A stretch of 64,000 nucleotides of DNA from Vulcanimicrobiota bacterium (GCA_963714015.1 OY970223.1:672001-736000), one strand, 5' to 3'; positions 41,140 to 64,000 are shown, counted from the stretch's first letter. Translations and numbers: made by a program. The notes: generated by a model from the letters alone, not told the origin.

Positions 41140-41146
41140 GAGCCGC

Positions 41147-41177: not shown

Positions 41178-41237
41178 AGGTGGCTGTGCCCTGCCGCCGA
41201 GCCCGGCGGCGATTTTTTCCTAGGAGAAGCGATCACC

Positions 41238-41692: not shown

Positions 41693-41916
41693 TGCGCACG
41701 CTCGCCGTCGGGGTCCTCAAGGGCTATAAGCGCTTCGTCTCCCCGCTGCTTCCGCCGGCGTGCCGGTTCTATCCCACGTGCTCGGAGTACGCTGCGACCG
41801 CTATCGCGAAACACGGGCTCGTGCGCGGCGGTATCCTGGCCGCAAAACGCCTCTCCAAATGTCACCCGCTCAACCCCGGCGGATTCGATCCCGTTCCGGG
41901 GATGCCGGAAAGGTAA
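41692..41916 (+). CDS. yidD: Membrane protein insertion efficiency factor YidD
   Basis: [32 protein letters not shown]. Confidence 0.95.
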
Positions 41917-41925
41917 CGCTTCCAC

Positions 41926-42786: not shown

Positions 42787-42789
42787 CCG

Positions 42790-43440
42790 ATGTTCGAAGA
42801 CGACATTGAACCCGAAGACGAGCAGCCGGCCGACATCCGAGACCGGAACATTCCGGGACGCGGCGGCAGCGGCGGCCGCCGTCCGCCCGGCGGAGCACCT
42901 CGACGGGGCGCACCCGGCGGCGATCGCCGTAAAATGCAGAACGAAGGAGGTCACGCGCCCCGTGCTCCGCGGGTCAAGCAAGAGTTTCCGGAGGATGCCA
43001 AACCGGCGCGCGCGCTGCTCGAAGAGATTCTGTCGCGCATGGGCGTGCCGCATGCGGAGATCGATTACGTGCCGCGTCCCGAAGGCGAATATTTTGAGGT
43101 AACGGGACCGGACCTGGCGATGCTGATCGGCCGGCACGGCAACACGCTCGAGGCGCTGAATTTGGTTTTCAACAACATCCTCAACACCGGCGTGAAGTCG
43201 AACCGCCGTTACTACACGATCGATGCCGAAGGGTACCGCGCGCGTCGCGCGGACCAGCTCAAGAATTTGGCGCTGACCACGCTCGAGCGGTGCATCCGAG
43301 AAAAGAAGCCGCAGAAACTCGATCCGATGCTGCCCTCGGAACGCAAGATCGTGCATCTGGCGCTGGCCGAGAACCAGCACGTGCGAACGGAGTCCGAAGG
43401 AGTCGAGCCCGAACGCCGCGTGGTGGTATTTCCGAAGTAG
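42790..43440 (+). CDS. jag: Jag/EloR/KhpB RNA-binding protein (KH + R3H)
   Basis: LIGRHGNTLEAL, DAEGYRARR, ERKIVHLAL, TESEG.EP.RRVV. Confidence 0.9.
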   Translation: MFEDDIEPEDEQPADIRDRNIPGRGGSGGRRPPGGAPRRGAPGGDRRKMQNEGGHAPRAPRVKQEFPEDAKPARALLEEILSRMGVPHAEIDYVPRPEGEYFEVTGPDLAMLIGRHGNTLEALNLVFNNILNTGVKSNRRYYTIDAEGYRARRADQLKNLALTTLERCIREKKPQKLDPMLPSERKIVHLALAENQHVRTESEGVEPERRVVVFPK

Positions 43441-44777: not shown

Positions 44778-44821
44778 CCGGGGCGCTCCGCGTCTGCGCC
44801 GGACTGTCGCGTTGCGCGGCC

Positions 44822-44830
44822 TGGTAGAAT
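44822..44830 (+). promoter_or_regulatory. Extended -10 element, probable leaderless promoter of mnmG
   Basis: TG-G-TAGAAT ending 8 nt before the ATG at 44839; no SD. Confidence 0.5.
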
Positions 44831-44838
44831 AGAGCGTC

Positions 44839-46701: not shown

Positions 46702-47381
46702 TGAAAGAGGCGTCCGCCCTTCGGGACCTTCTGATCGCAGGCGGAGTCGGTGAAGCGCAGGCTTCACGTTTGGCCGACTATGGCGGGCTTCTGCTCGAGG
46801 CGAACCGCCGCTTTAACCTGAGCGGCGCGGATACCCCGGCCGAATTGGCCCCGCATATTCTGGACAGTCTGACCTTGGCGCCTTATGTGTCGGGCACGTT
46901 GGCCGACGTCGGTTCGGGAGGCGGGCTGCCGGCGATACCGCTCGCCATCGCGACGGCGATACCGGTAACGATGATTGAGTCCACTGCCAAGAAGGCGGCT
47001 TTCCTGCGGCACGTTCTCTCGGAATTGGAATTATCGGGCCGCGTCGTCCCGCAGCGCGCGGAACAGTCCGGACGGGACCCGGCCATGCGTGAGGCATTCG
47101 ATTGCGCGACGGCACGCGCCGTTTCGAGCGCACCGGCGGTTCTCGAGCTCGCGGCGCCGTTCTTGCGAATCGGCGGGCGAGCGCTGTTGCAGCGCGGCGC
47201 CATGGACGGCCGCGAGCGCAACGCAGTCGTCGATGCTGCCCCGATGCTCGGCCTCGAATTCAATCAGGAAGTGCCGCTGGGCGGCGATCGGCGAATTCTG
47301 GTGCTGACGAAGGTGCACTCGACGCCCGAACGCTTCCCGCGCCGCAACGGAATCCCCGAAAAGCGGCCGCTCTGTCTTTGA
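46701..47381 (+). CDS. rsmG: 16S rRNA m7G527 methyltransferase RsmG
   Basis: HILDSL, DVGSGGGLP.IPLAI, ES..KKA.FL, ARAV, FPRR.G.P.KRPL. Confidence 0.93.
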   Translation: MKEASALRDLLIAGGVGEAQASRLADYGGLLLEANRRFNLSGADTPAELAPHILDSLTLAPYVSGTLADVGSGGGLPAIPLAIATAIPVTMIESTAKKAAFLRHVLSELELSGRVVPQRAEQSGRDPAMREAFDCATARAVSSAPAVLELAAPFLRIGGRALLQRGAMDGRERNAVVDAAPMLGLEFNQEVPLGGDRRILVLTKVHSTPERFPRRNGIPEKRPLCL

Positions 47382-47401
47382 CCGCGGGGGGTTCGCGCTG
47401 A

Positions 47402-47417
47402 CGTTCCACGTGAAACA
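47402..47417. other. parS centromere-like site
   Basis: CGTTCCACGTGAAACA matches the TGTTNCACGTGAAACA consensus; ~2 kb upstream of parAB, near oriC. Confidence 0.85.
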
Positions 47418-47501
47418 ATTAGGCGTGCCTAATTGCGAAAATCGCCGGAGAAGAACATTCCGGAACTCTCAGAGTACTACAGTCCGGGAGGTAACTCGCG
47501 A

Positions 47502-47735
47502 GTGGCAATTTGGTTCCTGCCCGTCATCCTACTCGGCCTCGTCGTCGCCGGTATACTGGCAGCAAGCAGGCCCCGGCTAAGAGATCCCCGGTTGGAGCGG
47601 ACCTGGTCGGATGATGACCCGGCTCCCTATGACGCTCCGGCCGGCAGTGAAGAGTTTCAGGAGCGACCGCATTCAATGCCCATAAACCCGGCATACGAGC
47701 GGATGCTCGACGAGGATCGACCCGCGGACTACTAG
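47502..47735 (+). CDS. Small single-TM protein with acidic tail
   Basis: GGGAGG SD, GTG 47502; AIWFLPVILLGLVVAGILAA TM segment. Confidence 0.6.
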   Translation: MAIWFLPVILLGLVVAGILAASRPRLRDPRLERTWSDDDPAPYDAPAGSEEFQERPHSMPINPAYERMLDEDRPADY

Positions 47736-47815
47736 CCGGCCGACGCTTTTGGAAAGCGCGAATGGCGGAACGGTCATAGCGTTCCGGTTTACGCAGGGGT
47801 ACGTTGGAAGGAACG

Positions 47816-47908
47816 ATGCAGGAATCGATTCGGCACTTCCTATTCTCGGCCGTTGCGCTCGGGGCGCTGGCGGCGGTCACGATCTTTCAACTCTACGGTA
47901 ACCACTAA
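47816..47908 (+). CDS. 30-aa hydrophobic small protein
   Basis: MQESIRHFLFSAVALGALAAVTIFQLYGNH; GGAAGGA SD; below the ORF-track cutoff. Confidence 0.45.
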   Translation: MQESIRHFLFSAVALGALAAVTIFQLYGNH

Positions 47909-47965
47909 ATCACTTTCAGTGGTGGCGCGAGGCGGCCTTTGCGCGCCGCGCGAACCGCGCTGACG

Positions 47966-49343
47966 ATGTACGAGCCGCTCCCCGCCGATGCAGCGCTCGC
48001 CGCCGTGCTGCCGGAAGGTGCGCTCTTTGCGGTCGGCGGCCGAGTACGCGACGAACTTCGCCGCGAGCTGCATGACGAGCGAATCGCCCTCAAGGACCTG
48101 GATTACGTCGTGACGGGGCTGTCCGCCGGCGCGCTGGAGCAGCGGCTGCGCAAGGCCGGCAAGGTCGATCTCGTCGGCGCGTCCTTCGCGGTCTTCAAAG
48201 TGACTCTGGACGGCCGCACTATCGACGTGGCGCTTCCCCGGCGCGAACGATCGATCGGTTCGGGGCATCGCGATTTCGAGGTGGACAGCGGGCCCGAAAT
48301 CCCGCTCGAAGACGACCTTGCGCGGCGTGATTTCCGGATGAACATGATCGCGCGCGCGCTCCCTTCAGGCGAGATCGTCGATCCCTACGGCGGCGCCGAA
48401 GACATTCGCGCGCGGCGGATCGACATTTTGGCGGACCGCACGTTCGATGAGGATCCGCTGCGCATGCTGCGGGCGGCACAGTTCGCCGCGCGCTTTGAAT
48501 ACGACGTAACGGCGCGCACGCGCACCGCGATGGAAGCAGCGGCGCATTTGACGCCGGCGATATCCCCGGAACGAATTGCCGAAGAGGCTCACGAAGCTGT
48601 TGGTGCAGGCGCGCAAACCCTCGATTGGCCTCAATTTATTGGCCGAGACGGGCGTTTTGGCGTACGTTTGGCCGGAGCTTACCGAAGGCGCCGGAGTTGA
48701 ACAGAACGAGTGGCATGCATATGACGTTTTTCGTCATAACCTCGAAACTGCCGATGCCGCCGCTCCGGGCGATCTGGTCTTGCGCTTGAGCGCGCTGCTG
48801 CACGACGTCGGCAAGCCTCGCACCAAAGAGGGTCCGCACTTCTACCGGCACGAGCAAGTAGGGGCCGACATGGCGGTTGCCATGCTTTCACGCCTTCGTT
48901 TTTCGAACGACGTCATCGACACGGTGGAACCGCTCGTGCGCCAGCATATGTACGTCGCCGATCCCGATCTGAGCGATGCCGCAATCCGCCGCTTCGCGCG
49001 CAGAATCGGTCTGGAAAGGCTGGATCGACAGTTTGCGCTGCGGGCGGCCGATATTGCCGGGAGCGGCTTGCCCAAGCGCGACGACTCCAACGAGCGCTTT
49101 CAGTCTCGAGTGTATGCCGAGATTGCCCGGCGGCCGGCCTTTTCGATCAAAGACTTGGAGATCGGCGGCGAGGACGTCATCGAAACGATGATTCGCGCCG
49201 GTTTGGCGAGGCCCGGATTCGCCGGCGACGAACGTGTCGGAGAAGCGCTGCGCCATTTGTTCGAGCAGGTCACCGAACAGCCGGAGCGCAACAAGCGGGA
49301 CACGCTAAGAGCGCTGCTGGAGCAGTATTTCGGGGGTTCCTAA
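47966..49343 (+). CDS. CCA-adding/poly(A) polymerase family nucleotidyltransferase with HD domain (frameshift ~48587)
   Basis: VGGRVRD..DLDY, DLARRDF.MN, EDPLRMLRA.QF, ERIAEE, ALLHDVGKP, FYRHE. Confidence 0.88.
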
Positions 49344-49345
49344 CA

Positions 49346-50140
49346 CTGTCGCGAATCATCGCGCTCGTCAATCAAAAAGGCGGAGTCGGCAAGAGCACCA
49401 CTACGGTGAATTTGGGCGCCGCGCTGGCAGTTCTCGGCAAGAACGTTCTGGTCGTCGATCTCGATCCGCAAGGCAATACGTCTACCGGACTGGGCATCAA
49501 CAAATCCGAGCTCAAGCGCGACGTTTACGACCTGCTGATGCATCATGCCTCGATCGACGAAGTGCTTCGTCCCACCGAAATCGACAATCTCCATATCATT
49601 CCCGCGACGATCAATCTTGCAGGCGCGGAGATCGAATTGGTGTCGGCCCTCTCGCGCGAAAACCGCTTAAAAGGCGTGCTGGCGACGATCGCGGACAACT
49701 ATGATTTCGTGCTGATCGATTGCCCTCCGTCGCTGGGATTACTTACAATCAACGCGCTGACCGCAGCGCACGATGTGATCATTCCGGTGCAGGCCGAGTA
49801 CTACGCGCTCGAAGGACTCTCGCAACTCACCAACGTCGTGCGGCGCGTTCAGGACGCGCTCAATCCAAAGCTTCACGTCAGCGGCGTGCTGGTAACGATG
49901 TTCGACGGCCGAACCAAGCTCGCCATGGAAGTGCTGGACGAACTAAACGCGTACTTTCCGCGCCAGATGTTCAAGACGCAGATTCCACGCAACGTGCGCC
50001 TCTCGGAGGCTCCCTCGTTCGGCAAACCCGTGATCCTCTTCGACCTCAAATCCCGGGGCGCTCAAGCCTACATGTCTCTGGCTAAGGAGATGCTCGAAGC
50101 TTACGGCGCAGTGCGCGAGCCGCGCGCCTTCGCGCAGTGA
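49346..50140 (+). CDS. parA: ParA/Soj partition ATPase (probable CTG start)
   Basis: IALVNQKGGVGKSTT lies upstream of the listed ORF start; DLDPQGN, IDCPPSLGLLT.NAL, IPRNVRLSEAPSFG. Confidence 0.95.
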   Translation: MSRIIALVNQKGGVGKSTTTVNLGAALAVLGKNVLVVDLDPQGNTSTGLGINKSELKRDVYDLLMHHASIDEVLRPTEIDNLHIIPATINLAGAEIELVSALSRENRLKGVLATIADNYDFVLIDCPPSLGLLTINALTAAHDVIIPVQAEYYALEGLSQLTNVVRRVQDALNPKLHVSGVLVTMFDGRTKLAMEVLDELNAYFPRQMFKTQIPRNVRLSEAPSFGKPVILFDLKSRGAQAYMSLAKEMLEAYGAVREPRAFAQ

Positions 50141-51013
50141 GCAGCCCGCCGAAACGTGGTCTGGGACGTGGGCTGGGAGCGCTGCTCGGCGAGGGTCCCG
50201 TGCCCACCGCGCCCCGTCCGCCGGCGGAAGACGCCGTCCGCCAAATCGGCGTCGATCGCATCCGCCCCAATCCCAACCAACCGCGCAAGATCTTCAATGC
50301 CCAAGCGCTCGACGAACTGAAAGCCTCCATTTCCGAGCACGGAGTGCTCGTTCCGATCCTCGTGCGTGAACTGGCCGAAGGTTACGAACTGATTGCCGGG
50401 GAGCGCCGCTGGCGGGCGTGCGCCGCTCTGCAGCGCGCGGCGATTCCGGCGATCGTGCGCCCCAGCACGGACCGCGAAAGTTTGGAAGTCGCAATCATCG
50501 AGAATCTGCAGCGCGAAAACCTGAATCCGCTCGAAGAGGCCGCCGGCATCGCGCAGCTCATTGAAGCACATGCATTCACGCAGGAGGAGGTTGCCCAACG
50601 GCTGGGCCGCAGCCGCCCCTCGGTAAGCAATTCCCTTCGGTTGCTCTCGTTGCCGGAAGCCATTAAGGCCCTCGTCGCGGCCGGTCAGCTCAGCGGCGCG
50701 CACGCGCGCACACTGCTCGCCGCTCCCGAAAACGCACGATTGGAGCTTGCAAAGCGCATTGCCGCCGAAGGCCTCTCCGTTCGGGCACTCGAGAAGATCG
50801 TCGAGGCGCTCTCGGCGCCGCATCCGTTGCGCAAGAACGTCGTAAAGGCACCCGCACTTTCGGCCGAAGACCGCGACTTTGAAGGCCGCATGCGGATCAA
50901 GTACGGCGCCCACGTTTCGCTGCGGCGCAGCGGGGCCGCAGGCAGCATCGAGATCAAATATTCGAGCGAATCGGATTTGATACGCATCGCCGAGTCTGCT
51001 GTTGGGAGAATAA
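50137..51013 (+). CDS. parB: ParB/Spo0J partition protein (probable indel ~50996)
   Basis: GLGRGLGALL, NPNQPRK, IAGERRWRA, IENLQRENLNPLEEA, SRPSVSNSLRLL; alternative-frame ending LLLGE-stop at 51013. Confidence 0.93.
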
Positions 51014-51015
51014 TC

Positions 51016-51189
51016 CTGGTCCCGCTGCAACGCGTCCTCGCACTGCTGATGGCGGGCGTCTTCATCTTCGCGTTCCTGGTGCCGCTGGCGCTGGCGCGTC
51101 ACGCGTATCCTCTGATCGTCGCCCTCGTTGCGTTCTTCATCGTGTATTTGGCCGTGAATGCTTGGATATGGAAACGGATGCGATCGTAG
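51016..51189 (+). CDS. Small two-TM membrane protein
   Basis: Hydrophobic tail of ORF 50137-51189; GGGAG SD 7 nt before CTG 51016. Confidence 0.45.
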   Translation: MVPLQRVLALLMAGVFIFAFLVPLALARHAYPLIVALVAFFIVYLAVNAWIWKRMRS

Positions 51190-51797
51190 CGCGCCTCACC
51201 GGAATCTATGCAATCCTCAACGAGGGGCCGGCCGATCCGGTCGCGCTGGGCGCACAAGTGCTTGCAGGCGGCGTGCGGATTCTGCAATATCGCGCAAAGA
51301 GCGGGTTGGTTCCGAATCACGCACGCGCGCTTCGGCGCCTCACGCGCGAACACCACGCCCTCTTGATCCTGAACGACGACTGGCGCGCCGTCGAACCGTT
51401 CGAGGCGGATGGGGTTCACATCGGACCGGAAGATGCCGCGCCCGAGCAGCTCGCGGACATCCGCGCGGCAATGGACGGCCGAATCTTGGGCATTTCATGC
51501 GGCACCGCGCAAGAGGCCAATGCGGCCCAGTGGGCCGGCGCAGACTACATCGGCGCGGGGTGCGTCTTTGCGACGCAATCGAAGGCCGACGCAGGCGAAC
51601 CGATCGGCATTCCCGGGCTGCGGCGAATTGCGGAAGCGACACCTTTGCCGGTCGCTGCCATCGGTGGTATAACGGCGGAAAATTTGTGGGAGGTTCGACG
51701 TACGGGCGTCGCGATGGCGGCGGTAATCTCCGCGATCTCCGCTGGTGCCGATCCGCTTGCCGCCGCGTCCGCGCTGGTTTGGGCTTGGAACGAATAA
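51168..51797 (+). CDS. thiE: Thiamine-phosphate synthase
   Basis: LQYRAK, LILNDD, ADGVHIG.ED, GADYIG.G.VF.T.SK, AIGGIT. Confidence 0.92.
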   Translation: METDAIVARLTGIYAILNEGPADPVALGAQVLAGGVRILQYRAKSGLVPNHARALRRLTREHHALLILNDDWRAVEPFEADGVHIGPEDAAPEQLADIRAAMDGRILGISCGTAQEANAAQWAGADYIGAGCVFATQSKADAGEPIGIPGLRRIAEATPLPVAAIGGITAENLWEVRRTGVAMAAVISAISAGADPLAAASALVWAWNE

Positions 51798-52557
51798 CTC
51801 TGCCGCTCCTCGTCTCGATCGGCACGACGCACCCCTGGAATATCGCCGGCGTCGGGCTAGATGCGCACGTCGCCGCGGAGTACGGCGTTTCTCATGCTTC
51901 GGCGATCGTCGCGGTGAGCGCGCAAGACGCCGGCGGAGTGCACGCGCTGCAGGCGATCGACGTCGACGTCGTGCGCGCGCAGCTGAGAACGCTGCCTGAG
52001 GGAATCGGTGCGTTCTGCATCGGCGCGCTCGTATCGAGTGAAATCGTGCGTACCGTGGTAAGCTATCTGCGCAGCGCCGAGGGCGTTCCGATCGTGGTCG
52101 ATCCGGTGTTCGTCGCATCGCTGGGCGGATCGCTCGCGCGCGATGCAGATCTTCCGGCGACGCTGCGCGACGAATTGATTGCGCTCGGCGTAATCGTCAC
52201 GCCGAATCTGCACGAAGCGCAGACTGCTTTTGGGAACGCACGTGCGCAACGACCGCGAAATGCTCGACGCCGCTCGGCAGTTGGTTCAGCGCAGGCGCGC
52301 GCGCAGCGATCGTGACCGGCGGTCATCTGCCGGCCGATCCCGTCGACATTCTGTTCGGCGATGCACGGGAAGCGCGCTTCGGGGGACCACGTTTGCCGGG
52401 TTCGATGCGCGGAACCGGCTCGACGTTTGCCGCTGCGCTATCCTGCGAATTGCTTCGCGATAACGACGTGCATCGTGCGGCCGCCGCAGCACATGCGTAC
52501 GTACGCGAGAAAATCGCGAAAGGGACGACGCGCGGCGGCTTGCAGGTCGCCTTCTAA
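51785..52557 (+). CDS. thiD: Hydroxymethylpyrimidine/phosphomethylpyrimidine kinase-like (frameshifts ~52228 and ~52295)
   Basis: AGVGLD, VSAQ, VVDPV, VTPNLHEA, TGGH, RGTGSTFAAA; follows thiE. Confidence 0.8.
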
Positions 52558-52582
52558 AACGCGTGCAAACGGGAGCGTTCTC

Positions 52583-53581
52583 ATGATGACCGCCAAACCC
52601 CGAGTCATGTCGGGCATGCGCCCGACCGGGCAGCTGCACATCGGCCATTATTTCGGCGTGCTCAAGCAGTGGGTCGACTACTGCAACACTGCGGACGCTT
52701 TTTTCGAGATCGCCGATCTGCATGCGTATACGACGGGGTTTGCAAATCCGCAAGTGATTCGCAGCGCGCGCAACGAGATGGTCGTCGACTGGCTGGCCGC
52801 CGGGGTCGATCCGCAGCGGTCGACGTTCTTTCTGCAGTCCGGCATTCCGGAAATCTCGGAGCTGCAAGTGTTGCTGGGCATGATCTCTCCGGTCTCGTGG
52901 CTCGAGCGCGTGCCGACGTACAAGGGCCAGATCGAAGCGCTCGGCCAGGAGATCGCGACGTACGGATTTCTGGGTTATCCGCTGCTGCAGCTCTGCGATA
53001 TCGCGGCCTTCCGCGGGCAAGAGGTTCCCGTCGGCCGCGATCAAGTGGCGCATCTGGAGTTTGGGCGCGAGGTGGTGCGCCGCTTCAATTACCTCTACGG
53101 CGAAGGCGAGCAGGTGCTGACGGAACCGAAGGCCATGGTCCTGGAGGACGCCGCCGAAGTGCCGGGCACGGACGGACGCAAGATGAGCAAGTCTTACGAC
53201 AACACGATACTGCTCGCCGACGACGAGGCGGCGACGACCCAAAAGATTCGCTCGATGATTACCGATCCGCAGAAGATCCGGCGCAACGATCCCGGCCATC
53301 CGGAGATCTGTTCCATCTTCGCGCTTTGGAAGCTGGTCAAGCCGCAGCACGTTCCGCTGGTCGACCGCGATTGCCGATCCGGCGCCCTGGGTTGCGTCCA
53401 GGACAAAGGCGATCTTGCTGAAGCGCTCAATGCCTATCTTCGTCCGATTCGGGAACGCCGCGCCCAGATCGCGGCGGACGTCGCGCAAGTTGAAGCCATT
53501 GTTGCGGAGGGCACCGCTCGGGCACGTGAAGCGGCGATAGAAACGATGGCCGACGTTCGGCGGGCTATGCGGTTGATATGA
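52583..53581 (+). CDS. trpS: Tryptophan-tRNA ligase
   Basis: SGMRPTG.LHIGH, IADLHA, YPLLQ..DI, VPVGRDQ, KMSKS. Confidence 0.96.
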   Translation: MMTAKPRVMSGMRPTGQLHIGHYFGVLKQWVDYCNTADAFFEIADLHAYTTGFANPQVIRSARNEMVVDWLAAGVDPQRSTFFLQSGIPEISELQVLLGMISPVSWLERVPTYKGQIEALGQEIATYGFLGYPLLQLCDIAAFRGQEVPVGRDQVAHLEFGREVVRRFNYLYGEGEQVLTEPKAMVLEDAAEVPGTDGRKMSKSYDNTILLADDEAATTQKIRSMITDPQKIRRNDPGHPEICSIFALWKLVKPQHVPLVDRDCRSGALGCVQDKGDLAEALNAYLRPIRERRAQIAADVAQVEAIVAEGTARAREAAIETMADVRRAMRLI

Positions 53582-54450
53582 ACGATCGCGTCGCTGCACT
53601 CGAGCAGCTGGTGGAACTGGCGCGCGGTCTTGCGCGCGACGACTTTGCGGTCGGCCAGATGTGCCGCCGGGTTTACGACTACACGCGCTCGCTGCTCGAC
53701 GTCCGCGTATTTCACGTCTCGATAGCGGCCGAAGATGGAACGCTGCAGCCCGAATACCATGTCGTGGACGGGAATGAAACCTACGCCGAACACACGCCGG
53801 CACGGGAAGAGATGACCGCCTTTCCCCTGCGGCACGGCGATCGCGAGGTGGGGGTCGTGCTGCTGCAGGCGGATGCGGAGAAGGTGTACGAGGCTGCGAC
53901 CGACCTGGAGGCTGCAATGGACTTCTTCGCGCTGGCCATTGCGAGCGTACATCGCCTGCGCGCGACCGAACGGCGCATCGATCGCGACAGTTTGACTAAT
54001 CTCTACAATCGAAACTACGGCGTGCGCCGTTTGCAGGAAGAACTCCAGCGGGCGGCTCGCGCCGGCACGCAAGTCTGCACGCTGATCGTAGACGTCGACG
54101 GCGTCGACGAGCTCAATACCAAGTATGGCCACCAAACGGGTGACAGCGCAATCCGTACCGCCGGCGATGCGCTCAAGTCGATCTGCCGCCACTCGGACGT
54201 ATTGTGCCGTTACGCCGGCGATCGATTCTTGTTGATCTACTCCGATTTCGCGGGCGACGATCCGTCGCCCGTGGCAAAGCGCGTACGCACGCAAATCGAA
54301 ATGCGGGTATTGCCCGTACCCGGAGGAGCCATCGGCTTAAAAGCGTCGATCGGCGCCGTCATCGGCGCGGACGGTATCGACGCAAACGCGCTGATTCAGC
54401 AGACCGAACGCGACCTACTTCGAGAGAAAACCGAACGCCGCCGCCGCTAG
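53578..54450 (+). CDS. GAF-like + degenerate GGDEF domain protein
   Basis: DSLTNLYNR, D.D....NTKYGHQTGD, RHSD I-site, RYAGDRF in place of RxGGDEF, ASIG. Confidence 0.85.
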   Translation: MNDRVAALEQLVELARGLARDDFAVGQMCRRVYDYTRSLLDVRVFHVSIAAEDGTLQPEYHVVDGNETYAEHTPAREEMTAFPLRHGDREVGVVLLQADAEKVYEAATDLEAAMDFFALAIASVHRLRATERRIDRDSLTNLYNRNYGVRRLQEELQRAARAGTQVCTLIVDVDGVDELNTKYGHQTGDSAIRTAGDALKSICRHSDVLCRYAGDRFLLIYSDFAGDDPSPVAKRVRTQIEMRVLPVPGGAIGLKASIGAVIGADGIDANALIQQTERDLLREKTERRRR

Positions 54451-54947
54451 GGGTGCCTTACCGGCGCTGCGTGCACCACCGCCGGTGCATAATGCAGCAT
54501 CATCCGCGGCATGGGCCGTACGGCCGGCTCGATCCGGCGGACCGGCATAGGAACCGGGCGCGTCACCGGTGCGGACCGGTGCGTGCTGAGGTCTTGAATC
54601 GGCGGCTGCGCTTCGTTCCAGTCCGGAACGCACTTGCCGCCGGGGCCGCGAGTCTGCGGGACGCTCACGAACACCGTATTCGCTCCGAAGTTCTGCGAGC
54701 CGACAAGCATCGGGTAAGGCCGGCACTCGTCCGGGAGTAAGCCGTTTGCCAGCTGATGGCAAATGCACCCCATCTGCGCGGCCGCCTCGTTTGTCTGCAA
54801 TGCGCACTGTCCTGGTTGCAGGCCAAGCGTTTCCACAGGCGCCGATGCGTAACGCTGAAAGCCGTAGGTCAGGCTGGGGCAGCCGGTGGCCGCCGCGCAC
54901 GTCCCGGCGGCGGCGAGAAAGGCTAACACGGTCAAGAGCACGCGCAT
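54447..54947 (-). CDS. Secreted Cys-rich, Pro-rich-tail hypothetical protein
   Basis: AGGAGG SD; signal peptide MRVLLTVLAFLAAAG; 6 Cys in the mature part. Confidence 0.6.
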   Translation of the reverse strand: MRVLLTVLAFLAAAGTCAAATGCPSLTYGFQRYASAPVETLGLQPGQCALQTNEAAAQMGCICHQLANGLLPDECRPYPMLVGSQNFGANTVFVSVPQTRGPGGKCVPDWNEAQPPIQDLSTHRSAPVTRPVPMPVRRIEPAVRPMPRMMLHYAPAVVHAAPVRHP

Positions 54948-55009
54948 GGACGGACCCCTCCTACAGCCATTTAACCTTGCGCGCCCCACCTTAAGCAACC
55001 CTGTGCGGT

Positions 55010-56200
55010 CTAAGCGCTGAACCGGGGGATGTATTTCTGCAACTGCGCGGTCGCGTAGTCGATGTCTTCGAGCGAGGCCGCGTACGAGAAGCGCAGGTAG
55101 CCTTTTCCGGCAGCGCCGAAAGCGGAGCCGCCTAGACACGCCACGCCGCCTTCCTGCAGCAAGAACGCCGCGAGCCCCTTGTCGTCCGACGTTACCTTCG
55201 AGACGTTGGGGAAGGCATAGAACGCGCCTTCCGGCATCGTGCACGAGACGTTCGGAATCGCGTTCAGCCCGTTGACGAGATGGTCGCGGCGTTGACGGAA
55301 CGTTTCGTTCATCTTGCGCACCGGTTCGTCGGGCCCCAGAAGCGCGGCGATTCCGGCATGCTGTACGAAGACGGGCGTGCACGAGAACGTGTTGTTGTTG
55401 AACAAGGTGACGATTTTGGCGATCGGCGCCGCCATGATCGCGTAACCCAGGCGCCAGCCCGTCATCGCGTACGCTTTCGAAAAGCCGTCGACGATGATGG
55501 TGCGCTCGCGCATCCCCGGAATCGTGACGATGGACGCAAACTCGTTCTCGTAAAAATTGCGGCTGTAGATCTCGTCCGCGATCACCAGGAAATCGTGTTT
55601 CTGCGCGAGGGCTGCGATGCGCTCCAAATCGCCGCGGGTCAAGACGCCGCCGGTTGGATTGTGCGGCGAGTTGATCATGATCGCTCGAGTCTTATCGGAA
55701 ACGCGGCGCTCGAGTTCGTCCAGATCCATTCGCCAGTTGCGTGACTCGTGCAGCGGAATGGGCGTAACCTTCGCGCCCAGGTAACTCGAGCACGACGCGT
55801 ATGCCGGATACGCCGGGTCGAAGTAGATGAACTCGTCGCCGGGGTTGAGGATCGCGCTCAAAATGTTCCAAATGATCGGCTTCGCTCCGGGTGACACCAC
55901 GACGTTCTCGGCGGCGAATGGCTCGACGCCGCGAAATTTCGCCGCGTAATCGGCGATCACGTCGCGCAGTTCCAGTATGCCGGCGGACGGAGAGTAATGC
56001 GTGTTGTTTTCGCGGATCGATTTGATGCCCGCTTCCTTGATATGATCCGGCGTGTCGAAATCCGGTTCGCCGATCTCCATGTGCACGACGCGTTTACCTT
56101 GCGCTTGCAGCGCGCGTGCGCGAGCAAGAACTTCAAACGCGCTTTCGGATCCGAGGCGCGAGACGGCATCGGCAATGCGATCGACATTGGTTGCGAGCAT
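55010..56200 (-). CDS. PLP-dependent class I/II aminotransferase (aspartate aminotransferase-like)
   Basis: IGEPDFDTP, INSPHNPTG, IADEIY, GFSKAYAMTGWRLGY, PEGAFYAFP, YLRFSYA. Confidence 0.93.
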   Translation of the reverse strand: MLATNVDRIADAVSRLGSESAFEVLARARALQAQGKRVVHMEIGEPDFDTPDHIKEAGIKSIRENNTHYSPSAGILELRDVIADYAAKFRGVEPFAAENVVVSPGAKPIIWNILSAILNPGDEFIYFDPAYPAYASCSSYLGAKVTPIPLHESRNWRMDLDELERRVSDKTRAIMINSPHNPTGGVLTRGDLERIAALAQKHDFLVIADEIYSRNFYENEFASIVTIPGMRERTIIVDGFSKAYAMTGWRLGYAIMAAPIAKIVTLFNNNTFSCTPVFVQHAGIAALLGPDEPVRKMNETFRQRRDHLVNGLNAIPNVSCTMPEGAFYAFPNVSKVTSDDKGLAAFLLQEGGVACLGGSAFGAAGKGYLRFSYAASLEDIDYATAQLQKYIPRFSA

Positions 56201-56220
56201 CGAGTGTTAAACCTTTCGCG

Positions 56221-56237
56221 GTGTCAGAATTGTGTCA
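56221..56237. promoter_or_regulatory. Direct repeat GTGTCA-N5-GTGTCA (OmpR/PhoB-type box)
   Basis: 11-bp period in the 77-bp divergent gap between the aminotransferase and the DUF11 gene. Confidence 0.45.
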
Positions 56238-56277
56238 AGGGGCCGCTAAGCCCGTGGCGAAGTGTGCCCCGACAATC

Positions 56278-59200
56278 ATGCGCACCCTTACGGACGTTTT
56301 TACGCCGGGAGCACCGACAATACCCGAGGGACTTCGGACCCTCATCGTTTCGCCCGAACGCGAGTTGGAACCTGGAATGACGGTGCGTGCGACCTTCACG
56401 TTCCGAAACCAAGGCGGCGCAACCGCGACGGGCGTGCGGGTAAAGTTCAATCTTCCCGAAGGTTTGGTTTATCTCGTCGGCAGCGGCCAGTGCGACGGCA
56501 CGGCGCTCGATGACGAACAAGGTAACTCGCCGCTGCTTGCGCGGGCCGGCGCCGACATCGGCGACGTTGCGGCCGGTGAAGAGCGGCGCATCGACATCGC
56601 ATATAGCGTCGCAGGCGCGATCGAAAATGGTTCGACCGCGGAACTTCAAGCCGCCCTCGCTGCCTTCGAGCTTCCGCCGGCCGGCTCGAACATCGTACGC
56701 CTGGTTGCTCGCAGCCGTCCCGCGCTGGAAAACGCGCTCACCAACATCGCGATCGAATCGCGCTCGAACGAGCCGCGCCCCGGCGCTGATGCGACGGTCA
56801 CGCTGCGTATCCACAATGCCGGCGAGTCCAGCGCCCACGACGTCGTGGTCGTTGCGCCGATTCCGGAAAATACGGAATACGTTCCGAACTCGCTGCGGCT
56901 GAACGGCCGCGAGTTCGAACGCGAACTGCCTGCGCCGTTCGATCGCGTGCACGCGCCCGTCGTCATGCCGGCGCTGCCGGCCAGCGCAACGGTCACGCTG
57001 CAGTATCGCGTGCGCATCGAGGACCCGCTCCCTGATGGAACGCCCATCGTGGTCCGCGCTCAGATCGCTTCGCAAGAGACGGCGGCATTCGAGCTGAAGC
57101 CTTCGGCACTAACAATCCGGGCTCGCGCGGATTTCGAAGGTGAGCGCACTGCGCTGGAGATCGAACCGGCCAAAGAGGTCGCACCCGGATCGCACGTCGT
57201 CGTGCGCCTGCGCGCATACAACGCCGGAACGACCGCTGCGCAGAATGCGATCGCGACTTTGTCGTTTCCCGAAGGGCTGATTCCCGTACGCGGTGCGACG
57301 CGCATCGACGGCGCGCCGGTGCGCGAACGCAAGAAAGATCCGACGACCTTCGATCTCGGTGCCATTCCGGCACGCGGCGCCGCCGAGCTCGTTGCCGAGG
57401 CAACCGTTGCATCGCCCATGCCCGCAACTGCGCTTACTATCGGAGCGGTGCTGCGCTGGGACGGCGCGAGCGGCTCCGAGCAACCCGCGCAGCGCCACTT
57501 CGAGCAAACGGTCTCGGTGGATGCGCGTCCGTATTTGAACCCGCGTCGCAACAGCGTCGAGCGCAGCGGCAACGCAGTCGTGCATCCCGCCGACGAGTGC
57601 GAGGCCGTCGTCACCATCGTCAACGACGGAAGCGCTGCGGCGACCGATGCCGTGCTGCATCTGTCGATCGATCCCGGACTGGACGATCTGCGCGTGCTGG
57701 ACAAAAACGCGCGGCTGCCGGTAGACAACAACTCCGTGGAACTGGGCGACGTCGAACCTTACGGTGCACGCCGTCTGACGATACGCGCTACCGTTCGCAC
57801 GCCGTATCCCGATCGCAGCGATCTGCGGCTGGGCGCCGCGCTTCACACGCAGGAGCTCGGCGAGTCGCCGATCGGGCAGGTCGATTGGCGGGTCGACTCG
57901 CATCCGGCATTTTCCGGTCAGAGCTCGGGATTAACGCTCGTTCAAGACGACGTATTCCGCCCCAATCAGCTCGTCGACGTGTACGTGAGGCTGCGCAACG
58001 AAGGCACGGACACCGCACAGAACGTACGGCTGCGCTTGTACATCTCACCCGAGGCGCGGCTCGAAACGGTCGAAGGCGCCACTCGCGAGCGATCGACGCT
58101 GCTTTTCGGCGAGATCGGTCCCGGCGCGAGCGCCGAAGCGCGGCTCGGCGTTCGGCTGCTGCGCAGTTTGGCCAAGGCGCATCCGGTGACGATCGACTCG
58201 GTGATCAGCGCCGACGCGATGCTGCCCGTGCAGCTTTCCGCGGCGACGATCGTCACCGCAGCCGAACCAAACTTCAGCATCGGAACGCTGCGCACGCTGC
58301 CCGAAGAAATCGCCGACGCGGGCGACGAGATAGAATTCGTCCTGCACGTGCGTAACAGCGGCGACGGCCCCGCGCGCCGCGTGCGCATCGGCGTGCCGGT
58401 ACTCGACTCGCTGATCTACGTTCCCAACAGTTGCACGGTGAACGATCTGCCGGTTCGCGACGTCGGCGCGCAGTCGCCGCTCTCGAGCGAGCGCGGCCTC
58501 ATCATGACGGACGTCGATCCCGGAATCGAGGCGACCATTCGCTGGCGGGAGGTCGTGCACAACGGTTTGGCATCGGGTGAAAGCATCGTGCGGACCGCAT
58601 TCGTCGCGTACGACGGCGACCGCGTGGACGAGATCGCCGCACCCGAGCTGAAAGTGCGCTGCGCGCCGGCGTTCGCGAATACGATTTCGGGGTTGCCTTT
58701 CGGCGTTGACGGCATGCTGGGACCGGCATTCGGGTCATCAGCGCGCGCTGACCGGCAGCGACGACCGTTTCCTGGAGTTACCGCCGGCAACGCCGGTGAC
58801 GCGCGGCGAGATCGCGTCGTCCGCCGTACTCTCGCTGGCGCCGAGTTCGAACGGCAACGGACACGCGCACGAACCGAACGAACGCGGATGGATACAACCG
58901 GCCGACGGCGTGACGGTCGTCGCCGTATTCGATCGCGATCGTCTGGATCGCGCGCTGCGGTTTTTGGGTGAAGCGCGTTTCGGCGGTTTGGTTTCGCACC
59001 TGTTTGCGGTCCGCGCGTTCTTTCCCGATACGGCGGGCGCGCAGGATCAGCAGACGCTGCGCGAGGTGCGGGAAACGCTGCGCGAAACGCTGGACCGGCT
59101 CTTCATCAAACTGCGTTTGCCGGGATACACCATTGCGCCGCGCGATTTGGAGAATGCGGCGGCGCGCGCGGCGCTGCAGTCGCTCGTCGCTTCACTGCAG

Positions 59201-59518
59201 CCTTCGGATGAGCTCGCGGATCCGGCCGGAAGCATCGTTTTGCGGGGGAACTTCGACGTGCGCGAGATGCGAGCGCTCGGCGAGCGTTTGGACTCCGCCG
59301 CACTTGCAACGGCATTGCCCTGGGCCATTCTGGCGCGCTTCATTCCGGGCGAAGGCGATGCGCTGCAGAATTACCGCGACATGCTGATCGCTTCGCTTGA
59401 CGATCTTGCAGGCGTCGACGAAGGATCTTTCGTCGACGCGCTTCAGCGACGGCCGTATCCCGTGTTGGACGCGGCGCTCGACGTCGTGCGGGCGCAGTTC
59501 GCAAATCTGCGTACGTGA
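56278..59518 (+). CDS. Large 6x DUF11-like repeat protein with helical C-terminal domain, paralog A (frameshift ~58740)
   Basis: Six PG....(T/V)...N.G...A..V.....P...Y..S repeats; no signal peptide; ORFs 56116-58971 and 58706-59518. Confidence 0.75.
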
Positions 59519-59919
59519 CGCCCGTCTACGTCGTTCTTGCGGCGATCTTTCTTGCCGGCGTACTGATAGGACTGTATGCCTGGATGGCGCCACGGCGCGT
59601 CGCAATCGAGCCCGAACCGCCCCCCTCCGCCCAGCCGTTCAAACCCAATCTTAGCTGGACGACCGAAGCGGGCGACGAGTTCGCGGGCTTAACGGAATCT
59701 GCACGCTGCGATTTGATCTTCGCGGTCGCGGATCTTCGCGACGAGCGTTCCGAACAGTTGCTCGTGCACGCGCTGGACGATCCATCCGACGCCGTGGCTC
59801 TCGCTGCGGCTCACGCGCTCGCGCGGCGCGGCGAAACAGCAGCCGTTAACGACTATGCCGAGCGTCATCCGGGGGAACGGGCGGATCGCATCGTCGCCAC
59901 GCTGGCTTTACTGGATTAG
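59515..59919 (+). CDS. Membrane-anchored HEAT-repeat-like protein, paralog A
   Basis: N-terminal TM; LLVHALDDPSDAVALAAAHALARRG; GTGA overlap with the upstream gene. Confidence 0.7.
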   Translation: MTPVYVVLAAIFLAGVLIGLYAWMAPRRVAIEPEPPPSAQPFKPNLSWTTEAGDEFAGLTESARCDLIFAVADLRDERSEQLLVHALDDPSDAVALAAAHALARRGETAAVNDYAERHPGERADRIVATLALLD

Positions 59920-59968
59920 AACAAGGAAGCGCAGGTTGAGTCCGAGCGCGTAGGGAAGTCCAATCTCC

Positions 59969-62900
59969 GTGGCCGCACCCGACCGCCCGACGACCAGCTC
60001 GCTGACCGGCGTCTTCGCTGCAGGCTCTCCACCGCTTATGGAGAGTCTGCGCACGCTTGTGGTCACGCCGCGGCGCGCCGTAACGCCGGGCGAGACGATA
60101 CGCGTAGAGTTCGCCTTCTCGAATCTCGGCGGCGCCACCGCGACGAACGTGCGCGTTCGTTTTGCCGTGCCGTCCGGCGTCTCGCACGTTGAAGGCAGCG
60201 ACACCGTCGACGATGCTCCGCTGCAGATCGAGAGATTCGATGCGATAGAAGGTGCACTGCTCGGCGATCTGGCTCCGAATGCTCAGCGGCGCGTCGCTTG
60301 CAGCTTCCGCGTGAACGATCGCGTCGAAGACGCCTCGGAGCTCCTTTTTCAAGCGGCGCTCGCAACGGATCAAACGCCGGTCGTTGCCTCGAACGCGGAA
60401 CGGCTTCTCGTTCGCAGTCAGCCGCAGTCTGCAGAACGCCTCGACACTGGTCACGCTCAGCGCTCCCGAAGATCTGCGGCCGGGCAGTGTCGTCACGGTT
60501 CGCGCAACGATTGCCAACACCGGAGCTTCGAGCGCGCACGACGGTTCGCGTCTTCCTGCCGCTTCCGCCGCACACGCAATACGTACCGCGTACCGCGCGC
60601 ATCGCCGGGACGAGTACTGCTCAACGTCGAAGACGAACCGTTCGATTATGCGTCGAGCGACGATTGCCGCCGAGCAGCTCGCACCCGGACAGAGCGTCGT
60701 CGTCGAATATCAAGCGGCAATCGACTCGCCGCTGGCCGACGGTACGCGGATTCGGGTCTTCGGCGCGGTCTCGTCGCGTGAAGTGGGCGAGTTCGACATT
60801 GGTTCCCCCGACGTCGCGGTCTTCTCGCCGCCGGACTTTACGAACGACGATACGACGCTGACCGTCTTTTGTGACGACGTCGTCTCGCCGGGTACGCGCG
60901 TGCCCATGGTCGTGCGCGTGCTCAACTCGGGAACCGGCGATGCGCAGAACGTTTCAATCACGTTCGATCTGCCGCCCGGTTTGGCGTATACGGCCGGCTC
61001 TGCGCACTTAGACGGTCAGAGCGTCAGCGACGAGGGATTTGCGGGCGCAACGTTTTCGCTTGGTACCGTTCCGTCGGCGAGAGTCGCGGACGTCGGCATT
61101 TCAGCGATCGTCACGCAACAGCAAACGGACCTGCCGATCGTCGCGACGCTGCAGTGGAAAGGCGGCCTCCGGCGCTTCTCGCGCACACTGCAAGTCCGGG
61201 TAAGCTCGCGTTTTACTCGCGCCCGCAATTTCATCGAAGCCGACCGCGGCGTTGCCGCGGCGCGTGAAGACATCACGTTCACCGTTCACGTTTTCAACGA
61301 CGGAACCGCGCCGGAAACCGATGCCCGTCTGCGCATCATTCCGGGAGCGTTCTTGGAAGACGTGCGCGTCGCCGAGTCGGCTGACGAACCCCTTCCCTAC
61401 GATCAGCCTTTCGCGCTGGGCATCGTGCAGCCGCATGGGGAGCGCACGTTCGTCGTACGGACGCGCGTCGCGTCGCCTGTTCCCGATCGTTCGCATTTGA
61501 CGTTGGGTGCGGTGCTCGAGTTCGCAAGCGGCACCTACGATTTGGGTAGTGCGACGGTCATCGTGCGCTCGCGGCCGCAAGTAACCTCGCAGAGTTGCAT
61601 GTGGGAGCGTGACGAGCGGGAGCCGATTCGTCCCGGCCAGACCCACGAAGTCGTCATCCGGTTTACGAACGAAGGCGCGGACATGCTGCGGGATGCCCGC
61701 ATGGATTTGATGCTGCCCGCCGAGCTCGCACTCGACCGCGCACAGAACGCGCGGCGGGAAGGCACGGCGTCGCTGTTCTTCGGGGACGTTGCGGCGGAGA
61801 CCACGCACGAAGCGCGCGTTGCGGTGAGGTTGGTCCGGCCGCCCAAGCGCGATCGAACGCTGATCGTGGAGGGGACGCTTTCCGGCAAGGGGATCAGCCC
61901 CGTTCAATTCGATCGTTTGGAGATACCGACGTTCGCGCAGCCGCAGTTCGCTGCCGATGCGCAGTCTGCGCTCGAATCCGTCCGAGAACGTCAATGCCGG
62001 GGAACGCGTTGCGTACGAGTTGGTTCTTCGAAATAGCGGTGACGGCCCCGCGGAAAACCTCTCGCTGCGCGCCGTGCCGTCGAATCTGGCCGTGTATATT
62101 CCGGGCAGCACCGCGCTCAACGGCATGATGATTCCGGACGACCTCGGTGCATCGCAACTCTGGTCGCAGCGCGGTCTGCAGCTCACCGACGTGAATCCCG
62201 GAATCGACCTGCGGGTGCGCTGGGAGATGCTCGTGATCTCGCCGCTTGGGGCCGGGACGGCGATCGAGACGCGAGTCATCGCCGAGTGGGACGGAATGCA
62301 GTCGATGGCGCTTGCGGCGCCGTCGCTAATCGTGGAATCGGCGCCCTCGCTCGCTGCGGGTGCCGCCGGTACGCCGATCTCGGTCGCGCAGCTCAGCGCG
62401 CCCTTCGAGGTGCCGTCCCCCGAAGCGATCGTTCCGCTCAAAGAAGCCGAACTGCCTGCGCCCCCCGCCGTCACTCAAGCCGCCGCCGTTCAAGAAGAAC
62501 GGCTGGTCGAGCCCGAAGCCGGAACCGCCGGTTCGGCCGGCGCCCCGTGCTGAACCGCCGGTTGTGCGCGCACCGGTCCTCTACGCCGACTTCATCGAAA
62601 ATCCACTGAGCCAAACGATTCGCGCGTTGGAGAAGAACGCAGGCGGCGGTTTGATTCCGCACGTCTTTGCGATTCGCGCGCTCTCCCCGAACGCAATTGC
62701 CGGCGCGCGGCCGGAGCTGGCGCAAAACGTCGAAAATGCCGCCGTCGCCATGCGCGCGCCGCTCGATCGCTTCTTCGTGCGTCTGCGTACCCCGGGCGTT
62801 ACGGTCACGGCAAAAGATTTGGAAGATCGCGAGAGCCGCTTCGCACTCCGCACCCTCGTCGACGCCGTCTTGGAAGCTTCGCCCGCGCCCCCGCCGCCGC

Positions 62901-63240
62901 GCCCTTCAGGCATCGTGCGTCTAAGCGGAAGCGTCAATCTGGAAGCCGTTCGCGCGCGCCGGGATGAGTTGGAGCGCTCGCCGCTGGGCTCGGTCGCCCC
63001 ATGGATCGTGAATGCCGGTTTGCTGGGGTCGCGGATCGAGTACGATGACGGCGGGCGCAGCGAGGTACTCGGCCAATACCGCGACGAGCTGATCAAAGTC
63101 TTCAGCGTTCTGGAGACGCTGCCGATGCCGGAGTTTCATCGCGTCCTGGGTTCGAGCGTGAATCGCATGCTCGACGATGCGCTGTCCGTAGTGCTCGAAG
63201 CACTGCGAACGGCGGCTCACCTTGCAGTTACCGAGTACGC
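59969..63240 (+). CDS. Large 6x DUF11-like repeat protein with helical C-terminal domain, paralog B (multiple frameshifts; end approximate)
   Basis: Colinear with paralog A across ORFs 59969-60781, 60384-62036, 61957-62553 and 62360-63307. Confidence 0.7.
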
Positions 63241-63543
63241 TGGGATTTCGTCATCGCGGCGGGCTTTGTCGCCGGCCTGCTGCTTTTCGTCTTCAGTTCG
63301 GTGCTGATGCGCGCATCCAATCGGCGGGACAAACTTGGCGCGGCGAACGTTTCGTGGCCCGAGCTGGTCGACGACGACATTCAAGAGACCGATGCCGGCG
63401 TGCGTCTGGAGATGGTGGAACGGCTCGCCATGGTTCCGGGCGCCTGGAGCCGCGGCGTTTTGGAGCAAGCCCAACGCGAAGAGCGCGAAGCCGGCGTGCG
63501 ATCGGCGATCGACCGTGCGCTCGCGGCTTTGAATAACGGCTAA
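63235..63543 (+). CDS. Membrane-anchored HEAT-like protein, paralog B (start uncertain)
   Basis: In-frame TM RWDFVIAAGFVAGLLLFVFSS upstream of the listed start 63301; VSW.E...RLEMVERLA..WS..VLEQA..EE...VR.AI..AL resembles paralog A. Confidence 0.6.
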   Translation, partial: VRWDFVIAAGFVAGLLLFVFSSVLMRASNRRDKLGAANVSWPELVDDDIQETDAGVRLEMVERLAMVPGAWSRGVLEQAQREEREAGVRSAIDRALAALNNG

Positions 63544-64000
63544 GGCTTCTTGTTGAAGTACTTGACCAGAATGTCGCGCGCGATCGGCGCCGCAACTTGC
63601 GAGCCGTAGCCGCCGGATCGATCGACGAATACGGCCATGGCCATCTTTGCGTGATTGGCCGGCGCGTAAGCAACGAACCAGGTCGTGTTCGGGCCGCTGC
63701 CGCCGGCCGTTTCGGCCGTCCCCGTCTTGCCGCCGTAAGGCAAACCGTCGATCGCCAAACCATACGCGGTGCCCCACGGCTCCGTCACTTGGTCCATCCC
63801 TTCGCGCACCGCTTTGAGCGCTTCTTGCGTCACCGGAACCCGGCGAACGATTTGCGGCGGAAAGGTTTTGACGACGTGTCCGCGCGGGTCACGCACTTCC
63901 GCGACGATTTGCGGTTTGTAGAGCGTGCCGCCGTTGATTACGGCCGACTCGACGTTGGCCATCTGCAGCGGCGTAGCTTGCAGCGCGCCTTGCCCGATCG
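63540..64000 (-). CDS. mrdA: Penicillin-binding protein 2, C-terminal part (truncated by the window edge)
   Basis: IGQGALQATPLQMA, NGG.LYKP, GGKTGTAE, WFVAYAP, AAPIARDIL. Confidence 0.85.
   Translation of the reverse strand, partial: IGQGALQATPLQMANVESAVINGGTLYKPQIVAEVRDPRGHVVKTFPPQIVRRVPVTQEALKAVREGMDQVTEPWGTAYGLAIDGLPYGGKTGTAETAGGSGPNTTWFVAYAPANHAKMAMAVFVDRSGGYGSQVAAPIARDILVKYFNKKP

Follow-up and report, generated by a model that had tools for sequence, protein, structure and literature searches.

What becomes of long proteins built from tandem DUF11-type immunoglobulin (Ig)-like repeats when they carry no recognisable signal for leaving the cytoplasm? The question is raised by a four-gene locus at the end of a 64,000-nucleotide (nt) stretch of DNA from a Vulcanimicrobiota bacterium (GCA_963714015.1 OY970223.1:672001-736000), which is referred to below as the window. 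Arrays of DUF11 ('CLIPPER') repeats count as markers of exported adhesins, and here a whole family is devoid of an export signal as judged by hydropathy. The locus comprises two genes for large proteins, A and B, each followed by a gene for a small membrane protein, sA and sB, respectively (Table 1). A-sA-B-sB is a real conserved operon of two paralogous two-gene modules, specific to Eremiobacterota (Vulcanimicrobiota). The initial annotation of this DNA had proposed a tandem-duplicated two-gene module at 56278-63543, and the boundaries proved exact and the duplication is supported: four genes lie between these positions on the plus strand, A and B are ~35% identical over ~810 amino acids (aa) (E 8e-135), and sA is homologous to sB (hhalign 95.2%, E 2.7e-8, 98 columns), which indicates that the duplication included both genes of the module.

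Table 1. Features of the A-sA-B-sB locus and its immediate neighbours, in positions of the window.
Feature	Position	Strand	Description
Gene A	56278..59518	+	ATG start; ~1080 aa, read through one +1 frameshift
Conserved N-terminal peptide of A, MRTLTDVFTPGAPTIPEG	56278..56331	+	Lies N-terminal to strand A of Ig domain 1
Six Ig-like DUF11/CARDB-type repeats of A	56323..58630 (approximate)	+	Found with Pfam, TIGR01451 and a repeat hidden Markov model
Variable Pro-rich linker of A	58630..58900	+	Conservation 0.38-0.54; AlphaFold2 predicted local distance difference test (pLDDT) 49-71
C-terminal alpha/beta domain of A	58904..59515	+	~200 aa; motifs GGL..HLFA.RA..P and DRLFIKLR.P.Y....DLE
sA	59515..59919	+	GTG start; 134 aa
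Gene B	59969..63238	+	GTG start; ~1090 aa, read through six +1 frameshifts; paralog of A; 3' end placed from orthologs, the frame as written in the window continuing to 63307
sB	63222..63543	+	~100 aa; transmembrane helix followed by a single HEAT-like helical motif; paralog of sA
Class I/II aminotransferase	55010..56200	-	Divergent from A; context only, not part of the module
PBP2-type transpeptidase, 3' end	63540..64000	-	Convergent with sB; context

The comparative analysis draws on a scan of GTDB species genomes in which 153 relatives were found and 80 loci kept; all of them were located through A, so that loss of A is invisible in this sample. Locus counts were taken from tblastn maps, and three misfiled loci (L004, L018 and L037) were reassigned. 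Twelve of the 80 loci are cut before or just after the end of A and are uninformative, which leaves 68. In 67 of these sA lies 3' of A and the order of the cluster is kept. The genes are tightly packed; the start of sA overlaps the stop of A by 4 nt (GTGA), and the stop of B is usually overlapped or abutted by the start of sB. Intact open reading frames (ORFs) of at least 1000 aa were found for A in 61 loci and for B in 32.

A and B share a single plan, in which an N-terminal peptide is followed by six DUF11-type Ig-like repeats, then by a Pro-rich linker and finally by a C-terminal domain of ~200 aa. The A orthologs are 1060-1100 aa long and 60-83% identical to the A of the window. Each element that the initial annotation had recognised in the two window copies was confirmed, including the linker and the C-terminal motifs. 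The N-terminal motif, in the form MR[TS]L..VF.PG.P..PEGLRTL, opens all 61 intact A ORFs, and its B form, SLTG[IV]FAPGSP.L.E.LRTL, likewise opens all 32 intact B ORFs. As to the repeats, Pfam DUF11 (PF01345) matches A with 98.2 bits against a cut-off of 24.6 (E 4.8e-28), the pieces of the window B with 48.9 and 20.6 bits, and the intact B of locus L003 with 83.8 bits. With TIGR01451, for which the cut-off is 24 bits, the scores are 100.7 and 86.9, and Pfam CARDB and NPCBM_assoc also match A and pieces of B. A hidden Markov model built from the six segments of A detects exactly six domains in B (E 4e-22 to 2e-7); its matches in A itself are circular and were not counted. In the A ortholog of L003 the N.G motifs of the repeats lie at residues 44, 180, 314, 442, 567 and 686. 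Apart from such Ig-type families, A and B match no family in Pfam, NCBIfam or PADLOC, and a PDB sequence search with full-length A gave no match. The repeats of both proteins very probably form an elongated rod.

The distribution of conservation along A is uneven. Among 51 orthologs, column conservation is highest in the N-terminal peptide and the first Ig domain (0.84-0.93, with a mean of 0.93 for the peptide), falls to 0.60-0.70 in repeats 3-4, reaches its lowest values (0.38-0.54) in the linker and rises again to 0.81-0.83 in the two C-terminal motifs. The Ig region of A is 56-80% identical between loci, compared with 69-88% for the neighbouring aminotransferase, and on this basis A is conserved like a housekeeping protein. 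A and B are acidic, with a median isoelectric point of 5.0, and have a median of 3 and 2 Cys residues, respectively (range 0-10 across orthologs). In a set of 20895 ORFs from all six frames of the window and the loci, covering 1.4 Mb of flanks, the N-terminal peptide was confined to A and B; a role as a targeting peptide was therefore rejected, for the examined flanks only. A divergent subfamily of 850-950 aa, with source names of Candidatus Elarobacter, has kept the C-terminal domain and is devoid of the N-terminal peptide; its members begin at the first Ig strand (..EPVLHALSVEPR..).

The absence of export signals, noted initially for the window copies, extends to the whole family. By hydropathy, neither a signal peptide nor a transmembrane segment was detected in any of the 61 A and 32 B ORFs, or in 72 more distant members (proteins of at least 600 aa, analysed over their first 60 residues with a 15-residue window). 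The peak 15-residue hydropathy among the distant members is 1.79 and falls within the first Ig strands; the transmembrane helix of sA has a 19-residue median of 2.70. There is also no space for an overlooked leader, since only 77 nt separate the start of A (56278) from that of the divergent aminotransferase (56200) in the window, and in L003 sA and B are 13 nt apart. The aminotransferase match stops 37-91 nt short of the A start across the loci.

Comparison with the known DUF11 proteins makes the peculiarity of A and B apparent. DUF11 repeats are described as the stalks of signal-peptide-bearing fibrillar adhesins on the surface of bacteria and archaea, the copy with a solved structure contains a Lys-Asp-Asn isopeptide bond (Lys715, Asp748 and Asn806 in PDB 9IFR), and the bond is missing from some copies (PMC12617251). 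Like the adhesin stalks, A and B are long proteins with tandem Ig-like repeats that score above the Pfam cut-off. Unlike the adhesins, they have no signal peptide, sorting or anchor domain, adhesive tip or conserved isopeptide Lys; no sorting, anchor or tip domain was found in either protein with Pfam, NCBIfam and PADLOC. They further differ in their housekeeping-level conservation, private C-terminal domain, dedicated membrane partner and confinement to one phylum. Only two Lys residues, K352 in a loop of repeat 3 and K940 in the C-terminal domain, are kept in at least 90% of 12 A orthologs. Five of the six A repeats are thus unable to form the isopeptide, as no conserved Lys is available there; the Asp and Asn positions of the triad were placed by hand from a consensus.

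The small proteins are bitopic, each with a single transmembrane helix. In sA, compared among 31 orthologs, a transmembrane helix at residues ~5-24 is followed by the sequence APRR, a variable linker of 15-35 residues and a helical domain of ~85 residues, whereas in sB (34 orthologs) the helix is followed by one motif, R.E.VERLA.V...WS..VLE.A..EE....VR.AI..AL. Their description as HEAT-like proteins with an N-terminal transmembrane helix is upheld, with a borderline Pfam score: HEAT_2 (PF13646) reaches 26.6 bits on sA, just below the cut-off of 27.7, and sB has no Pfam match. Searched against the PDB, the sA profile retrieved alphaRep HEAT-like repeat proteins (E 2.5e-23) as well as 6veh, which is a natural HEAT repeat protein (E 1.1e-9), the matched region (residues ~60-118) corresponding to about two HEAT-like repeats. 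This region fits the 31-residue repeat consensus of the PBS-lyase/alphaRep HEAT-like proteins (PDB 4zv6, 6veh), but it comprises about two repeats in sA, and only one in sB, and is fused to an N-terminal transmembrane helix. The sA family counts 672 proteins of ~133-146 aa and is confined to this locus. HEAT-like repeats bind proteins or peptides.

The charge distribution around the transmembrane helix points to the orientation of these proteins. The mean number of Lys and Arg residues before the helix is 0.0 in sA and 0.65 in sB, compared with 2.9 in the 15 residues after it, and an excess on the C-terminal side is seen in 31 of 31 sA and 31 of 34 sB sequences. Positive charges flank the cytoplasmic side of transmembrane helices (the positive-inside rule), and the HEAT-like domains of sA and sB are therefore predicted to face the cytoplasm, the compartment in which the signal-less A and B would also be expected to remain.

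The C-terminal domain appears to be confidently folded and to have no known relative in Pfam, PDB or BFVD. Its AlphaFold2 model, computed from a 27-sequence alignment, has a pLDDT of 88.3 and a predicted template modelling (TM) score of 0.81 and shows an alpha/beta arrangement of two strands and nine helices. The assignment to a characterised family was sought in several ways. Pfam gave nothing at E <= 0.1 for the C-terminal regions of the window; when each of the 27 members was scanned at E <= 1, isolated weak matches appeared, with no family found in more than one of them. A profile search of the PDB had its best match at E 2.2, Foldseek with the model gave best E values of 0.25 in the PDB (TM-score <=0.28) and 0.13 in BFVD, and the protein atlas searches returned no usable match. 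With the window A domain as query, 173 representative proteins were retrieved at E <= 1e-3 among 1.84 billion. Among the long ones the match is almost always located at the C-terminus; the other matches are stand-alone proteins or fragments of ~200-300 aa. Several polar residues are strongly conserved. The 27 sequences, drawn from A, B and distantly related members, all share H80, R119 and R136, and at least 90% of them have R113, D129, E131 and Y205; in a 68-sequence full-length alignment H894, D943, R950 and D1051 are invariant.

The fate of the second module among the relatives offers some insight into which parts belong together. In the 67 loci with sA behind A, a full B is present in 45, B is cut at the contig end in 3, a stand-alone B-type C-terminal domain replaces it in 5, B is absent from 11, and 3 end after sA. 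The five loci with the stand-alone domain (L064, L070, L075, L078 and L080) belong to a Tyrphobacter-like clade; the protein of L075 (7454-8044, ~197 aa) matches the profile of the C-terminal domain with hhalign at 99.2%. An sB-like gene is still present in 4 of the 5. Since the stripped-down B has mostly kept its sB, the C-terminal domain is the candidate partner of the small protein. A downstream small ORF with a transmembrane segment accompanies the B-type C-terminal domain in 47 of the 50 loci that have this domain, so that the large and small genes co-occur for both modules. As for the other three, L026 and L070 have the helical motif with no clear transmembrane segment and L064 has neither. 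B and sB are jointly absent from the 11 loci; in 10 of these PBP2 follows at a distance of -1 to 161 nt, the exception being L056, where other genes are found. On the tree of A (47 labelled of 51 rows) the absence of B requires six changes, of which at least five are forced by starred branches, and B and sB were consequently lost together at least five times; the state with the C-terminal domain only forms one clade. In a joint FastTree phylogeny, rooted at the midpoint for drawing only, A and B form separate clades, each with 100% support and spanning the same lineages. This argues that the duplication is old, in line with the old A/B pair suggested by the initial annotation. We infer that A and sA constitute the core module and that B and sB are an old, dispensable duplicate.

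Two loci of this sample deviate in other respects. In L043, the single informative locus with no sA behind A, A continues in frame into an IF-3-like and then an rpmI-like sequence (8588-9058); this is most likely a chimeric contig rather than a real fusion. L007 and L020, two contigs of one bin, carry two complete A-sA-B-sB loci, which reflects either two strains mixed in the bin or a genuine duplication of the locus.

The reading that we favour, tentatively and with less than even confidence, is that A and B are cytoplasmic Ig rods which the C-terminal domain and the HEAT-like partner tether to the inner membrane. The large proteins would remain in the cytoplasm, the C-terminal domain would dock onto the HEAT-like domain of the cognate small protein, and the rods would thereby be held at the inner face of the cytoplasmic membrane. 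The N-terminal peptide and the first Ig domain, the most conserved part of A, would contact a conserved partner or the next subunit, and the module would act as a structural scaffold, not as an adhesin. The predicted topology fits the membrane-tethered cytoplasmic scaffold or heterodimeric filament put forward initially. In its use of a tiny membrane protein that recruits a large cytoplasmic structural protein, the arrangement proposed for sA and A would resemble that of SpoVM and SpoIVA in Bacillus, although the proteins do not share a fold, sA combines a transmembrane helix with HEAT-like repeats where SpoVM forms an amphipathic helix, and SpoIVA is an ATPase. Several considerations weigh against such tethering. 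The localisation is predicted from hydropathy and charge counts, and the binding of A and B to sA and sB is putative. DUF11 domains are otherwise known almost exclusively from surface proteins (PMC12617251). A single deletion can remove the adjacent B and sB, whose joint loss is a weak indication of a functional link, the conserved synteny with the aminotransferase and PBP2 may merely mirror the shared ancestry of the sampled loci, and the invariant or nearly invariant His, Asp, Arg, Glu and Tyr residues of the C-terminal domain could equally mark an enzyme or a ligand-binding site.

The last of these points leads to a different view of the module, in which the C-terminal domain is its working part, an enzyme or ligand-binding module at the membrane, the Ig array serves as a spacer or oligomerisation arm, and the small protein recruits or regulates the domain; it is compatible with tethering. 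The invariance or near-invariance of polar residues across A, B and distant members, the confident compact predicted fold and the existence of the domain as a ~197-aa protein of its own in five loci speak for this possibility, but neither its sequence nor its fold resembles any enzyme family in Pfam, the PDB or BFVD and the conservation of A peaks at the N-terminus and the first Ig domain rather than in the C-terminal domain, and we consider it distinctly unlikely. Somewhat unlikely, in our judgement, is the non-classical export of A and B to the surface or periplasm as an adhesin stalk, an S-layer-like sheet or a sheath, with the N-terminal peptide as the export signal and the small membrane proteins as dedicated export or anchoring factors. 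Export would agree with the occurrence of DUF11 in the stalks of surface fibrillar adhesins, some copies of which have no isopeptide (PMC12617251), and with the prominence of the peptide, which ranks with the best-conserved segments of A (0.93) and is common to A and B despite their ~35% identity. It is difficult to reconcile with the lack of a hydrophobic leader in 61 A, 32 B and 72 distant proteins, with a conserved neighbourhood that holds no secretion gene, with the predicted cytoplasmic position of the soluble domains of the small proteins, and with the absence of the peptide from all other proteins encoded in 1.4 Mb of flanks. In addition, the conservation of A is far above that usual for surface proteins, and no sorting, anchor or adhesive tip domain was found in A or B. 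If the proteins were exported after all, the N-terminal peptide would mark an undescribed export route.

Cytoplasmic tethering could be taken one step further. The six-Ig rods of A, and in most lineages also of B, hung on their HEAT anchors, might be joined via the N-terminal peptide and the first Ig domain into a lattice or filament, perhaps head-to-tail, with the N-terminal peptide and the first Ig domain placed onto the C-terminal domain; such a lineage-specific cytoplasmic membrane skeleton is a rather doubtful proposition, and it may be connected to the long rod or filament shape of these bacteria. An analogy is offered by eukaryotic filamin, a cytoplasmic tandem-Ig rod with a distinct terminal domain and a link to membrane proteins, as is proposed for A and B; A and B have no actin-binding domain, no sequence kinship with filamin was found, although no search was aimed at it, and the resemblance would concern the mode of working and not family membership. 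A skeleton of this kind would be a bacterial counterpart of the filamin and spectrin scaffolds, made from a domain so far known only extracellularly. Even the more general cytoplasmic scaffold, if true, would be categorically new: a type of membrane-associated scaffold not described before in bacteria, and a characteristic trait of a soil phylum that is abundant worldwide but poorly known. By sequence, the repeats fall within DUF11 and the small partners within the HEAT-like repeat class, and the C-terminal domain appears to be new. No description of the module was found in the literature: no paper combined DUF11 with Eremiobacter, and among the papers listed none brought the phylum names together with Ig-like or HEAT terms. 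A representative of the phylum, Vulcanimicrobium alpinum WC8-2, has been cultured, so that localisation and knock-out tests are feasible in principle if this strain carries the locus.

The reading frames of the window copy are interrupted, and the nature of these interruptions bears on whether the module functions in this genome. They were located by frameshift-aware dynamic programming of intact ortholog proteins against the window DNA. Gene A contains one +1 frameshift (one extra base) at ~58738, inside the Pro-rich linker, and gene B contains six, at ~60425, 60543, 60607, 60656-9, 61965 and 62458-62539, every one of them +1. The 3' end of B, read by hand, suggests an eighth event of the same kind near 63238-63240. 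The codons of the B frame at 63233-63238 are GAG TAC, at the point where L001, a close ortholog, terminates with E-stop. The transmembrane helix of the window sB has no in-frame canonical start, the first candidate, GTG 63301, lying 3' of the helix, and a TTG at 63222 stands in the neighbouring frame; the sB orthologs start with TTG or GTG six to nine codons ahead of the helix. One extra base would account for both the missing stop of B and the missing start of sB.

The breaks in A and B are most likely assembly errors, as the initial annotation had assumed, because the orthologs are uninterrupted and other genes of the window are split alike. Both lptF/G (13630-14734, minus strand) and cca, which encodes the CCA-adding enzyme (47939-49343, plus strand), are split by a +1 event into two overlapping frames, and the record seems to carry systematic single-base insertions. 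Comparable scattered breaks occur in A, B and flanking genes of four other loci (L008, L011, L012 and L017). Programmed +1 frameshifting was rejected, as the orthologs are single open frames. That the module, and above all B, is instead a decaying pseudogene with real mutations would be in keeping with the density of the events, seven or eight per 7.3 kb with six in the 3.3 kb of B, since only two splits are certain in the remaining 56 kb of the window and the density documented there is lower. Decay is nevertheless very improbable: all events are +1, the direction also found in the presumably essential lptF/G and cca, the re-aligned reading contains no in-frame stop, the identity to orthologs (60-75%) is normal, and the four loci just mentioned, which are of a long-read style, show breaks of like kind. 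For annotation, the frameshifts of this record should be read through rather than labelled as pseudogenes. The tamB region (28737-33666) is also spread over several frames.

The source names of A, sA and the divergent members are all from Eremiobacterota/Vulcanimicrobiota, with the exception of one entry named 'bacterium', and Baltobacteraceae, Rubrimentiphilum, Aquilonibacter and Elarobacter are represented. Six of the 80 loci (L032, L033, L038, L039, L045 and L061) are titled as Acidobacteriota or Verrucomicrobiota bins. Their contigs are probably mis-binned, which is the simplest explanation because the flanking genes of the six are those of the other loci, at equal identity. The sole cultured representative of the phylum is described as a diderm rod or filament of 1.5-92 um with vesicular internal membranes and without mention of an S-layer (PMC9758169). 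The window contains a cluster of outer-membrane and lipopolysaccharide genes on the minus strand (13630-33666), with lptF/G, lptB, lptC, an O-antigen-ligase-like gene, lpxB, lpxA, fabZ, lpxC and lpxD as well as two skp/OmpH genes, bamA and tamB, which fits a diderm envelope.

The aminotransferase neighbour is kept in every locus that reaches that far. On the other side of the module in L003, mreC, maf, a DUF3465 gene, a cytidylyltransferase-like gene and obg lie upstream of PBP2. A link to cell shape through the adjacency of PBP2 was not used, because PBP2 is convergent and about ten loci have genes in between, with gaps of up to 8.5 kb. No Rfam match was found in 50000-64000, a scan for promoters and terminators gave a number of sites not above that in shuffled sequence, and the PADLOC anti-phage defence models identified no family among A, sA, B and sB of L003. 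A 311-aa ORF on the minus strand (54447-55382), which overlaps the aminotransferase by ~370 nt in another frame and matches the other loci only over the overlap, is probably not a gene. The window also includes a replication-origin neighbourhood (33747-51186), with gyrB, a gene for a DciA-domain protein, recF, dnaN and dnaA on the minus strand and rnpA, jag (R3H), mnmE, mnmG, rsmG, parA and parB on the plus strand. The cumulative GC skew has a shallow local minimum at ~40-42 kb and its lowest value in the window at ~20-24 kb, and the A/B module lies ~16 kb from dnaA.

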